The notes below the pieces were generated by a model. That model searched no databases, was not told the DNA's origin, and worked only from the letters and a program-made list of their open reading frames with translations. This document shows, one piece after another, positions 49,701 through 64,000 of a stretch of 64,000 bases of DNA. Origin of the DNA: Tistrella mobilis (lineage in GTDB: Bacteria; Pseudomonadota; Alphaproteobacteria; Tistrellales; Tistrellaceae); contig NZ_JBBIAB010000003.1 in the NCBI RefSeq assembly GCF_039634785.1, forward strand, positions 13,724-77,723, read 5' to 3'. How positions within the stretch are numbered: position 1 is the first letter of the stretch; every line of letters starts with the position of its first letter. Both the position numbers and the translations under genes were made by a program.

Positions 49701-52105
49701 TGGTGCCGCATGGCCTGCGCCCCGGTGCCGTGCGCAATGAATTCGGCATGGCCGAACTCTGCACGGTGATGACCGGCGGCATCGACTTCACCGCAGACGG
49801 CGCCTGCCGCCATGTCACCGCCGGATCGCTGACCGGCCGGCTGCGCGCCGCCACGGCCCCCGGCCCCGGCACGGTCAGCTTCGTCGATGCCGGCCGGCCG
49901 ATCCCCGGTGTCGCGATCCGCATCGCCGATCCCGACGGCGCCACCTGCCCGGAAGGCGTGATCGGCCGGCTTCAGGCGCGGGGTGCCGTCACCACCCCCG
50001 GCTATATCGACAACGCCGCCGCCAATGAAGCGGCCTTCGCCGATGCCGGCTGGTTCGACACCGGCGATCTGGGCTTCATCGCCGATGGCCGCCTGGTGCT
50101 GACCGGCCGGCTGAAAGAGATGATCGTCGTCCGCGGCGCCAATCACTATGCCCATGACGTCGAAGACGAGGCCGGCCGTGCGGCAGGGGTCGCCGCCACT
50201 TTCGTCGCCGCCACCGCCGTCGACCGCCCCGATCTCGGCACCGAAGGGATCGCCGTTTTCTACGTGCCCGAGGCTTGTCTGGCCGAGATCGGTGCCGCCG
50301 ATGATGCCGGCCCGCGCCGCGCCGAAATCGCCGAGATCACCGCCCGTCTTGCCCGCCGGCTCGGCATTGCGCCCTCGGTGGTGGTGCCGCTGGACCGGGC
50401 CGATTTCCCCAAGACCACCAGCGGCAAGATCCAGCGCACCGCCCTGCGCCGCCGGCTGGAAGCGGGCGATTTCGATGCCCGACTTGCCACCCTCGGCCTC
50501 GCCCCGGGCCGCGATCGGGGGCCGGGACTGCCCGACTGGTTCCTTGAGCCGGGGGATGCCCCCGCCCCGCCGCTTGCCGGCGCCCCGCGGCTTGGGCTGA
50601 TCGAAGACCGCCTGCCGCGTGGCATGGCGCTGGCCGATGCCATCGACCGCCGGCGCGCGCTGCTGGCCCGGCTGGCCGGCCAGGATGCCGAGCTGGTGCA
50701 GGATGCCGAACTGGTCACCGTGACACCCGCCGGCGACGTCACCGCCGCCGCGGTCGATGCCTTCACCGCCGCCGCGGCCGAGGACCTGCCCGGCCTGCAT
50801 CTGCGCCGGATCATCGTGGCCGACGGTACCCCCGAAGCGGTGGTCACCGACGAGATCGCCCGCGGCACCCTGCCGGTGGTCCACCTTACGGCCGGCGGCC
50901 GCACCCGGCCGGTGCTGCGCCCGGCGCGGCTCGCCACCGACATCCCTGCCCAGGGTATCGCCCCGGGGCAGTCCTGGCTGGTCACCGGCGGCCATGGCGG
51001 GCTCGGCCGGGCGCTGATCCGCCACCTGCTCGATCGGGGCGTGGCCTCCATTACCGTCATCGGCCGGCGCATGGCAACGATGGATGACCCGCGGGTGCAG
51101 GCCCTGTCGCTCGATCTTGCCGCCGCCGATGCCGGCGCGCGGCTTGCGGCCCTCGGCCGGTTCGACGGCATCGCCCATCTGGCCGGGCTCTATCGCGAGC
51201 GCCCGGCGGCCGAGGAAGACGGCAGGGCGGTGGCCGAGCTGGCGGCGCCCAAGACCGGCATGCTGCCGGCGCTTGCCCGCCTGCTGCGGGATGACGGGCT
51301 GCTGATCGCCTTCTCCTCCGTCGTGGCCCATCTGCCGGCGGCCGGCACCGCGGCCTATGCCGCCGCCAATGCGGCCCTCGAAGCCGAAGCCGCTGCGCTG
51401 CGCCGGCCCGGCGGGCCACGCCTCGTCACCATCGCCTGGACGAATTGGGAAGGGCCCGGCATGGGGGCGGCCGTCACCGGTGCCGCCGGCCTCGCCCGCG
51501 GCCGCGGCCTGCTGCCCATCCCGCCCGCCGACGGTCTGGCCAGCCTGGATGTCGTGCTGGCCGCCGGCCTCACCCGCGCGGTGATCGGCGCCGATCGCCG
51601 CCATCCGATGATCGCGGCCCGCTGCATCGATCCGGAACTGTCCCCCGCCCGCGCCCGCGCGGTGCTGCTGGTGGCAGGTGAAACGGCTGCCCCGGCGACG
51701 CTCCGCCGGGCCGAAGACGTCTTCGGCACCCCTGCCGGGCCCGGGCTCCGCCATGTCGATCATCTGCCGGAAAGCGACGACGCCCTTGCGGCCCTTGCCG
51801 GCGGCGGCGACACCCTTGCGGCCGTCGCCCCCCGCACGCCGACCGAAACCGCCTTGGCCGCGATCTGGTCGGAACTGCTGCCGGCACCGGTCGCCGGCAT
51901 CGATGCCGATTTCTTCGCCGCCGGCGGCCACAGCCTGCTCGCCGCCCGGATCGTCACCCGGATCAACGACCATTTCGGCCTGCACCTCACCCCGGCCGCG
52001 CTGTTCGATGCCCCGACCATCCGCGCGCTGGCGGCGCATGTCGACGGCATTGCGGCGCCGGGCCCGGCCGGAGCCGACGAGGATTTCGAGGAGGGCGCCC
52101 TGTGA
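46697..52105 (+). CDS. Hybrid NRPS module: C - (vestigial A-domain C-terminal fragment) - acyl-AMP-ligase (FAAL/AL-type) adenylation domain - ketoreductase - T
   Basis: ATGA overlap with the upstream NRPS. C domain HHIVADGWS (47263-47289). ANL domain with FIQLSSGSTGVPKCIQVTHGGV, NWLPFDHVVPM, EFGMAEL, GRLKEMIVVRGANHYAHDVE, PKTTSGKIQR. KR Rossmann WLVTGGHGGLG and SSVVAHLPAAGTAAYAAANAAL. T domain FFAAGGHSLLAARI. Confidence 0.9.
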   Translation: MSTLPPDTPAGRSLLDRMAALSPAQRAALKQRLAARDGAPAAPATTVAAETWPEVGAQAPLSPAQARFLFLAEDEAGDAQAMSLMLRIDGPLDADRLAAAVSDVVTAQAALRCRILNTARGPVQEVLPAPAPAEALPVVHVWPAEDADAALVAAGLTLGREGFDLAAGPLARFRLFRCAPDLHGLGVVLHHIVADGWSAGLCLALIQDAYAQRMAGRQPAPPPARSAFDEARRLADLAGGEAHRRRLDQWVDRLAGAPRRLMLDGGPGEPGPARHLPFRISPARTEALAGLSRRVPGATVFTALLAAWGAVLGRFTDQGDTTIAVAVANRPDPALDRTIGEFADLVVLRLATADDPGVDTLLTRTRDAVIDAQAHDGITLAQIMEAIDRRHGAGARPAIDAAFSFLNVPAPAADAHGLRFRPLPLPADRLDFALYLTAHEDPAGGLAGSLGFRPDMVPPALAAALADAFGLVVDAISLDGSLPVSRLALTTEPAGDDLPVVTGPDGRLHLAPVGLPGRLLPGPDRARRLSDGRLRLLPGIDGALRRGTARVHPAAVEAALRRLPGVLDAAVWTRIGTDHEARLVAAVATRIPSIGPAGFAAGLVDALPPLLRPDAVLPVHAIPRDAEGRPDRAALDRLAVPAAPHRADRAALVWVEAPAPALQHLPLDSLPGTARAADDADWLVPGDPPPPALADGGPLVLPADAPRTLDAALIATAAGHPGRGILHDDGRGSPQLQDYAGLLAAARRTLGRLQAAGLRPGDRAVLVFADLSRHIEALWACILGGLRPVTVAVPHAAGDAVAAKLSGTHAHLGAPPVLTDADTRDHLTRILPQARILVAAPAADTPEGILHPAAPEDVAFIQLSSGSTGVPKCIQVTHGGVIAHVFGQVDAWGHGPDDVSMNWLPFDHVVPMLTCHLKDTVLGRQQIQAPTAAVLDRPLLWLDLIERHRVTLAWAPNFAFRLVADALSRETGRRRDLSSIRWFINAGEQVTAPVVADALAAMVPHGLRPGAVRNEFGMAELCTVMTGGIDFTADGACRHVTAGSLTGRLRAATAPGPGTVSFVDAGRPIPGVAIRIADPDGATCPEGVIGRLQARGAVTTPGYIDNAAANEAAFADAGWFDTGDLGFIADGRLVLTGRLKEMIVVRGANHYAHDVEDEAGRAAGVAATFVAATAVDRPDLGTEGIAVFYVPEACLAEIGAADDAGPRRAEIAEITARLARRLGIAPSVVVPLDRADFPKTTSGKIQRTALRRRLEAGDFDARLATLGLAPGRDRGPGLPDWFLEPGDAPAPPLAGAPRLGLIEDRLPRGMALADAIDRRRALLARLAGQDAELVQDAELVTVTPAGDVTAAAVDAFTAAAAEDLPGLHLRRIIVADGTPEAVVTDEIARGTLPVVHLTAGGRTRPVLRPARLATDIPAQGIAPGQSWLVTGGHGGLGRALIRHLLDRGVASITVIGRRMATMDDPRVQALSLDLAAADAGARLAALGRFDGIAHLAGLYRERPAAEEDGRAVAELAAPKTGMLPALARLLRDDGLLIAFSSVVAHLPAAGTAAYAAANAALEAEAAALRRPGGPRLVTIAWTNWEGPGMGAAVTGAAGLARGRGLLPIPPADGLASLDVVLAAGLTRAVIGADRRHPMIAARCIDPELSPARARAVLLVAGETAAPATLRRAEDVFGTPAGPGLRHVDHLPESDDALAALAGGGDTLAAVAPRTPTETALAAIWSELLPAPVAGIDADFFAAGGHSLLAARIVTRINDHFGLHLTPAALFDAPTIRALAAHVDGIAAPGPAGADEDFEEGAL

Positions 52106-64000: not shown

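Follow-up and report, generated by a model that had tools for sequence, protein, structure and literature searches.

The 3' part of a 64,000-nt stretch of Tistrella mobilis DNA (the window) carries a large nonribosomal peptide synthetase (NRPS) gene at 52102-64000 on the + strand. This region almost certainly represents the first three quarters of the gene for the third synthetase, equivalent to didC plus didD, in the T. mobilis didemnin (did) cluster. In a megablast search against plasmids, it matched megaplasmid pTM3 of T. mobilis KA081020-065 in a single alignment with 100% coverage and 95.8% DNA identity (pTM3 686696-698547). The encoded protein is 96.6% identical to DidC and 95.7% identical to DidD of that strain. 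Per-domain identities ranged from 91.5 to 100% and were highest for the docking domain, the first and third adenylation (A) domains (A1 and A3) and the methyltransferase (M) domain; the M domain is 98.3% identical and the A domains are 96-99% identical. The specificity codes of A1-A3 are the same in the window and in KA081020-065. Moreover, proteins in the window match NCBI entries under the name Tistrella mobilis exactly. The idea of a new NRPS of unknown source was considered and rejected on the basis of the near-identity to pTM3 over the full length. The synthetase is already known, and no new biology emerges from the region.

The did cluster was reportedly described by Xu et al. in 2012 (JACS 134:8625). 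The genes didA-didJ of KA081020-065 constitute the didemnin cluster, with didAB giving rise to Gln-Gln-Pyr, and T. mobilis JCM21370, for which didemnin B has been reported, has didC and didD fused (PMC9964501). The pathway comprises 11 NRPS and 2 polyketide synthase modules, and DidA is a bimodular Gln-activating NRPS (PMC10811503). Didemnins contain L-Pro, N-methyl-D-Leu (N-Me-D-Leu) and L-Thr, and Pro has the L configuration at both of its positions in didemnin B (PMC3853740). The acyl-polyglutamine prodrugs didemnin X and Y are products of the assembly line (PMC5577590). Didemnin is an anticancer depsipeptide, and clinical trials of plitidepsin (dehydrodidemnin B), its oxidised derivative, are still under way (PMC5577590; bioRxiv 10.1101/2023.04.24.537896). 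A first-pass annotation of the window had predicted the incorporation of Pro, N-Me-D-Leu and Thr, exactly as in the Lac-Pro-(N-Me-D-Leu)-Thr part of didemnin B (Lac, lactyl); it had not recognized the published pathway, and the fourth module of the gene was outside the sequence available to it. Thus, specificity codes read from the raw sequence led to the correct product segment.

The open reading frame (ORF) of the third synthetase begins with a GTG at 52102 and continues for 3966 codons without a stop to the window end. The whole gene has 5185 codons, as called on NCBI contig JBHUNG010000010.1 (GCA_042685245.1), the same contig as the window. The window covers the first 3966 codons, and another 1219 aa are encoded beyond its end. 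This start codon shares bases with the TGA stop codon of the DidB gene ahead of it (ctGTGAcc), and a Shine-Dalgarno sequence, GAGGAGGG, is located ~6 nt 5' of the GTG. A stop/start overlap with a Shine-Dalgarno sequence is the usual arrangement of translationally coupled synthetase genes. G+C content is 62-76% across the window and ~74% in the synthetase part, where the G+C at the three codon positions (0.80/0.55/0.87) is gene-like in the + frame only. Two long antisense ORFs, at 51760..58752 (-; 2330 aa) and 58786..63927 (-; 1713 aa), were tried as genes and rejected on the basis of codon-position G+C and of the Pfam matches on the + strand. They are shadow ORFs of the 74% G+C coding region.

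The window part of the protein has the domain order TubC-type docking domain, condensation (C)-A-carrier (T), C-A(inserted methyltransferase, MT)-T-epimerization (E), and C-A, with the last A domain cut at the window end. These domain calls, obtained with Pfam on ten pieces of the protein, reproduced the order that the first-pass annotation had proposed, and the motifs it had quoted were all found in the ORF where it had placed them. KA081020-065 DidC/DidD, from the same species, has the same domain order, codes, docking domain and partner tail. It differs from the window in being encoded by two genes rather than one 5185-aa gene, as a result of an extra C at window position 56036, and in loops of low complexity, which show a few in-frame changes of length. 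Note that in-frame tandem repeats differ in copy number between the strains: a 15-nt repeat (2.2 copies) at 57199-57231, which is translated as DPAGL repeats near the N-terminus of A2, and 12/24-nt repeats of the PVTAP type at 60605-60658, in a loop of the E domain. All features of the synthetase and of the preceding DidB tail described below are on the + strand.

The protein starts with a TubC-type β-hairpin docking domain (aa 5-54; 52114..52263), followed by a short linker and by the first C domain, C1, from ~aa 76. The docking domain belongs to Pfam family TubC_N (PF18563; E 3e-19), scoring 69.3 bits against a cut-off of 26 and spanning profile positions 3-52 of 52. In the PDB, it matched TubC itself (2jug; E 8e-12, ungapped), 6cgo (E 2e-8) and AerJ (8aqq; E 8e-8). 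Family membership and PDB matches together confirm the TubC type of the N-terminus, and the ungapped alignment to 2jug supports the β-hairpin fold predicted for it earlier. The docking domains of TubC (2jug), Kj12A-C, EpoB and Bamb_5915 have in common with that of the third synthetase the TubC_N family, the N-terminal position and the location ahead of a C domain.

In β-hairpin systems, a short tail follows the carrier domain at the C-terminus of the upstream partner, as it does in DidB. The C-terminal tail of DidB, PGPAGADEDFEEGAL (52058..52102), comprises the 15 residues after the PP-binding domain and is identical in KA081020-065. Short disordered tails after carrier domains are known partners of β-hairpin docking domains (PMC9113145, PMC6195595). 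By analogy, the DidB tail is a candidate short linear motif for recognition by the docking domain. Since the DEDFEEGAL tail is purely acidic, the salt bridges would be one-sided, with the Arg/Lys residues provided by the second strand of the docking domain, which reads ELRFRAPKG. In contrast, a reciprocal salt-bridge pair has been described for Kj12B/C. A β-hairpin docking domain is present at the DidB-to-DidC junction only. DidB, DidF, DidH and DidJ begin with a common motif, L..LSPAQRAaLekRLaa, and are without TubC_N (46697-46800 in the window; 21384, 30460 and 36910 in L082, from the reference strain KA081020-065). With TubC_N confined to the DidB-DidC junction and a shared motif elsewhere, the pathway seems to have two classes of N-terminal docking element.

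Specificity codes were determined by MAFFT alignment to the GrsA A domain, using a GrsA copy that is identical to 1AMU over residues 65-526 and has DAWTIAAICK at the ten positions. Module 1 consists of C1 (52327..53601; Pfam Condensation, E 1e-54; motif HHAAADGWS), A1 (53671..55098; Pfam AMP-binding and AMP-binding_C) and the carrier domain T1 (55171..55371; Pfam PP-binding, E 1.5e-16; GGHSL). The code of A1, DVQFAAQVVK, is Pro-like. It agrees at every called position with the Pro-like DVQ....VV read earlier and fills the gaps in it. The canonical Pro code is DVQ(L/F)IAHVVK, which A1 matches at 8 of 10 positions, with differences at I299A and H322Q. In KA081020-065, the other Pro module, DidI, likewise reads DVQFAAQVVK, and its A domain is 78% identical to A1. 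Occurrence of the same variant code in DidI suggests that DVQFAAQVVK is a Pro code in this organism and largely removes the doubt about A1. The two deviations raised the possibility of a pipecolate or methylproline domain, which we rejected because the DidI code is identical and both product positions are Pro.

Module 2 begins with C2 (55459..56757; Pfam Condensation, E 2.7e-95; HHIASDGWS), which holds a run of five C residues at ~56036. The core of A2 up to motif A8 is encoded by 56881..58140 (Pfam AMP-binding, E 7e-74; GrsA alignment aa 1595-2013). Its code, DAWFLGHVVK, matches the Leu code DAWFLGNVVK at 9 of 10 positions, with N322H as the only difference. The Leu-like DAWFLG.VV of the first-pass annotation was recovered in the alignment, which supplied His for the missing position 322. 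The exact code DAWFLGNVVK is found in DidH, the unmethylated Leu module.

A methyltransferase had been proposed to be inserted between motifs A8 and A9 of A2, and the alignment to GrsA breaks at that point. A phmmer comparison with GrsA halted at aa 2013 (after GRADGQVKLRGHRIEPGEIE...) and resumed at aa 2433 (LPEALVPAEI), defining an insert of ~420 aa between the GrsA-equivalent positions ~477 and 484. The insert (58141..59397) matched Pfam Methyltransf_12 with E 1.9e-15. The remainder of A2, with motifs A9-A10 (LPEALVPAEI...NGKLDR; 59398..59517), aligned to GrsA positions 420-459. Accordingly, only the last 36 positions of the AMP-binding_C profile (41-76) were found by Pfam 3' of the insert. 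S-adenosylmethionine (SAM) motif I (VWEIGCGSG) and the NRPS N-methyltransferase motif, both quoted earlier, were located in the insert, which contains INSVIQYFPGEDYL, NEMTRFRYDVT and LDLPNAR, and INSVIQYFP among the NRPS N-methyltransferase motifs. The consensus motifs of M domains are the Marahiel core motifs M1-M3.

The closest known parallel to the A2-M-A2 unit in our comparisons was the interrupted adenylation domain of the thiocoraline synthetase, TioS(A4aM4A4b) (5wmm), which it matched over its whole length with E 1.8e-132. The insert alone matched the M domain of 5wmm with E 4e-53 (insert residues 14-384). As in A2, the MT of TioS is located within the C-terminal subdomain of the A domain, between A8 and A9. 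TioS differs in having another substrate, that predicted for A2 being Leu, and module 2 additionally has an E domain. TioS works with an MbtH-like partner, TioT, and interrupted A domains such as that of TioS need such a partner. No MbtH-like gene was found in the window; an MbtH-like ORF (NHEEQYSIWP...PLGW) is located directly 3' of didJ in KA081020-065 (L082 ~43440-43680). A search of a protein database with the A8-MT-A10 piece yielded no ortholog, returning only fragments of <1000 aa with 29-46% identity over most of the query, from a database apparently without megasynthases; a single 69% match spanned just 10% of the query. In a scan of genome contigs, the best of the matches listed was 44% identical and none was from Tistrella, but this result was dominated by the generic Thr A-domain pattern and is uninformative on relatives outside Tistrella.

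Module 2 continues with the carrier domain T2 (59590..59778; Pfam PP-binding, E 8.8e-17), which has the GGDSI form typical of carrier domains ahead of E domains. The E domain follows at 59830..61401, with the motifs HHLVIDAVSW, EGHGRE and FNYLGQ. It is Condensation-like in Pfam and scored 92.5 bits with the NCBIfam model TIGR01720 (cut-off 74.2), and its best PDB matches were all E domains (PvdL, BacC, TycA/B and GrsA). The epimerase call of the first-pass annotation is therefore well founded, and the N-Me-D-Leu predicted for this module is a residue of the known product, as didemnins contain N-Me-D-Leu (PMC3853740). Module 2 has a counterpart in another natural product pathway. The N-Me-D-Trp module of the chondramide synthetase CmdD is likewise of the A(MT)-T-E type for an N-methyl-D residue, with a different substrate and in a different organism. 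The CmdD logic is as in module 2: N-methylation on the carrier, epimerization and a D-selective C domain.

The further C domain expected after the epimerase, C3, is encoded by 61405..62646 (Pfam Condensation, E 2e-57; HHALLDGWS). Its best PDB matches were the C domains that follow E domains in McyB, PvdL, SrfA-C, BacC and TycB1 (E 1e-39 to 1e-54), whereas the next group, including TycC (2jgp), reached only ~1e-17. We take the McyB, PvdL, SrfA-C, BacC and TycB1 structures to be of the D-donor subtype. On the strength of these matches, C3 is assigned to the D-donor type and is predicted from its sequence to accept a D-configured donor. A3 (62761..64000; Pfam AMP-binding, E 2e-83) is truncated by the window end, 3' of motif A8. 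Its code, DFWNIGMVH, which had been read as an exact Thr code, was reproduced by alignment. It matches the Thr code DFWNIGMVHK at all nine readable positions, with Lys517 located past the window end; the complete A3 of KA081020-065 reads DFWNIGMVHK. The rest of the third gene, as present in L082, encodes T-C-A-T, completing module 3 and adding a fourth module with the A4 code DAFFLGITFK, which points to Ile.

The assignment to the did cluster is supported by colinearity across the pathway. Upstream of the third synthetase, DidA (window 40302-46700) has the order C-A-T-C-A-T, with an N-terminal C domain, and the code of both its A domains is DAWQFGLIDK, an exact match to Gln. These codes fit the acyl-polyglutamine prodrug part of didemnins X and Y. 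DidB (window 46697-52105) has the order C-A-ketoreductase (KR)-T, and among solved structures it is closest to 6ulw, a keto-acid A-KR-T protein (E 2.6e-121). The similarity of its A-KR part to 6ulw is consistent with reduction of pyruvate to lactate. Note that DidB contains a weak AMP-binding_C-like stretch (aa 556-628) ahead of the A core. Downstream of the third gene, L082 encodes DidE (ketosynthase (KS)-KR-T-C), DidF (A-KR-T), DidG (KS-MT-T), DidH (C-A-T; DAWFLGNVVK, Leu), DidI (C-A-T; DVQFAAQVVK, Pro) and DidJ (C-A-MT-T-thioesterase; DASTLAAVC, Tyr). The module order thus matches, residue by residue, the sequence (Gln)n-Lac-Pro-MeLeu-Thr-Ist-Hip-Leu-Pro-Me2Tyr of didemnin X/Y (Ist, isostatine; Hip, hydroxyisovalerylpropionyl).

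Several points weigh against this reading. Two positions of the A1 code and one of the A2 code deviate from the canonical Pro and Leu codes, respectively. The did gene names rest on secondary sources and on the colinearity analysis presented here, binding of the DidB tail by the N-terminal domain is a prediction, and no documented didemnin production by the strain of assembly GCA_042685245.1 was present in the literature found. The deviating codes, together with a DNA difference of ~4% from KA081020-065, could suggest a diverged did-like cluster whose product is another depsipeptide, in which, for instance, pipecolate or methylproline takes the place of proline, or a different branched residue that of leucine. 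We consider this extremely unlikely, given that all three codes are identical in the didemnin producer KA081020-065, that the A domains are 96-99% identical to those of this strain, and that DidI, the other Pro module of the pathway, has the unusual code of A1, both Pro residues of didemnin B being L-Pro (PMC3853740). Doubt may also be raised about the MT insert, which Pfam assigns to generic class I methyltransferase families only and which could be an inactive spacer or methylate something besides the backbone nitrogen. There is next to no chance that this is so. The SAM motif VWEIGCGSG is intact, INSVIQYFP, NEMTRFRYDVT and LDLPNAR are present, and 370 residues of the insert align with the TioS (5wmm) domain that methylates the backbone nitrogen. 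At 98.3% identity between the strains, the insert is also among the best conserved parts of the protein. Moreover, Leu is without another methylatable heteroatom, and the product has N-Me-Leu (PMC3853740). An inactive spacer was rejected after the 5wmm match.

The organization of the gene requires separate consideration. The gene that is single in the window is annotated in KA081020-065 as two ORFs (1330 and 3853 aa), and the single gene of JCM21370 has been called a fusion (PMC9964501). The natural protein might on this basis consist of two subunits, DidC and DidD, the single ORF of the window being an assembly error or a recent fusion. Such an explanation is unlikely in view of the structure of the junction. 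The sole difference there is one C, with C5 in the window at 56036 (run in 56030-56045) versus C4 in pTM3 (~690630; L082 4631). The frameshift site is at ~aa 1312, in the middle of C2 and ~63 aa past the HHIASDGWS (HHxxxDG) motif. Furthermore, the reference DidC ends with 19 out-of-frame residues, and the GTG start of the reference DidD is without a Shine-Dalgarno sequence. The DidB sequence of the window is present in two independent sources, the NCBI assembly and the Logan assembly of run DRR031214, the Logan contig stopping short of the junction. Most simply, the single genes would be the functional state, and the splits would be homopolymer errors or strain-specific frameshifts. The single four-module gene, as found in the window strain, is a better template for annotation and engineering than the reference didC/didD. 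It is very unlikely that the single-base difference at 56036 is real and not a sequencing error in KA081020-065. If real, the KA081020-065 assembly line would have a C domain divided between two polypeptides close to where its two lobes meet, the window would represent the intact ancestral form, and the strain pair would constitute a natural experiment on split C domains. A second boundary in the reference record, that between didH and didI, is also located within a C domain (L082 33827-34320; pTM3 ~719.8-720.3 kb), and the sequences on either side of it, at the DidH C-terminus and the DidI N-terminus, resemble out-of-frame translations. In JCM21370, didH-didI is one gene (PMC9964501).

The findings on domain order, specificity codes, homology and did-locus identity can be combined with standard NRPS enzymology, from which the docking contact and the order of chemical steps are taken, into the following reaction sequence. 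The carrier domain of DidB would hold the acyl-(Gln)n-lactyl chain, and the acidic DidB tail would dock on the N-terminal β-hairpin docking domain of the third synthetase. Module 1 (C-A-T) would activate L-proline, with C1 coupling the lactyl carboxyl group to Pro. A2 would then activate and load L-leucine, and the embedded M domain would methylate the α-amino group of the carrier-bound Leu using SAM, before C2 makes the Pro-MeLeu bond. Inversion of the α-carbon by the E domain would follow, allowing C3, as a putative D-donor type C domain, to hand the chain to L-threonine loaded by module 3. The fourth module, past the window, would add isoleucine, which DidE is expected to extend to isostatine. 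The predicted result is the segment Lac-Pro-(N-Me-D-Leu)-Thr-Ist of didemnins X/Y and B.

Accessory genes are found 5' of the synthetases (20326-25600, 30486-31271 and 35736-40030), including two pairs of resistance-nodulation-division (RND) pump and membrane-fusion proteins. No homologue of the CAAX-protease DidK was detected among the window ORFs scanned. A Sfp-type phosphopantetheinyl transferase is encoded at 24689-25600 and a type II thioesterase at 30486-31271. A type II thioesterase gene flanks the did cluster, and its deletion lowers didemnin yield (PMC10811503); the gene at 30486-31271 may be the one described there.

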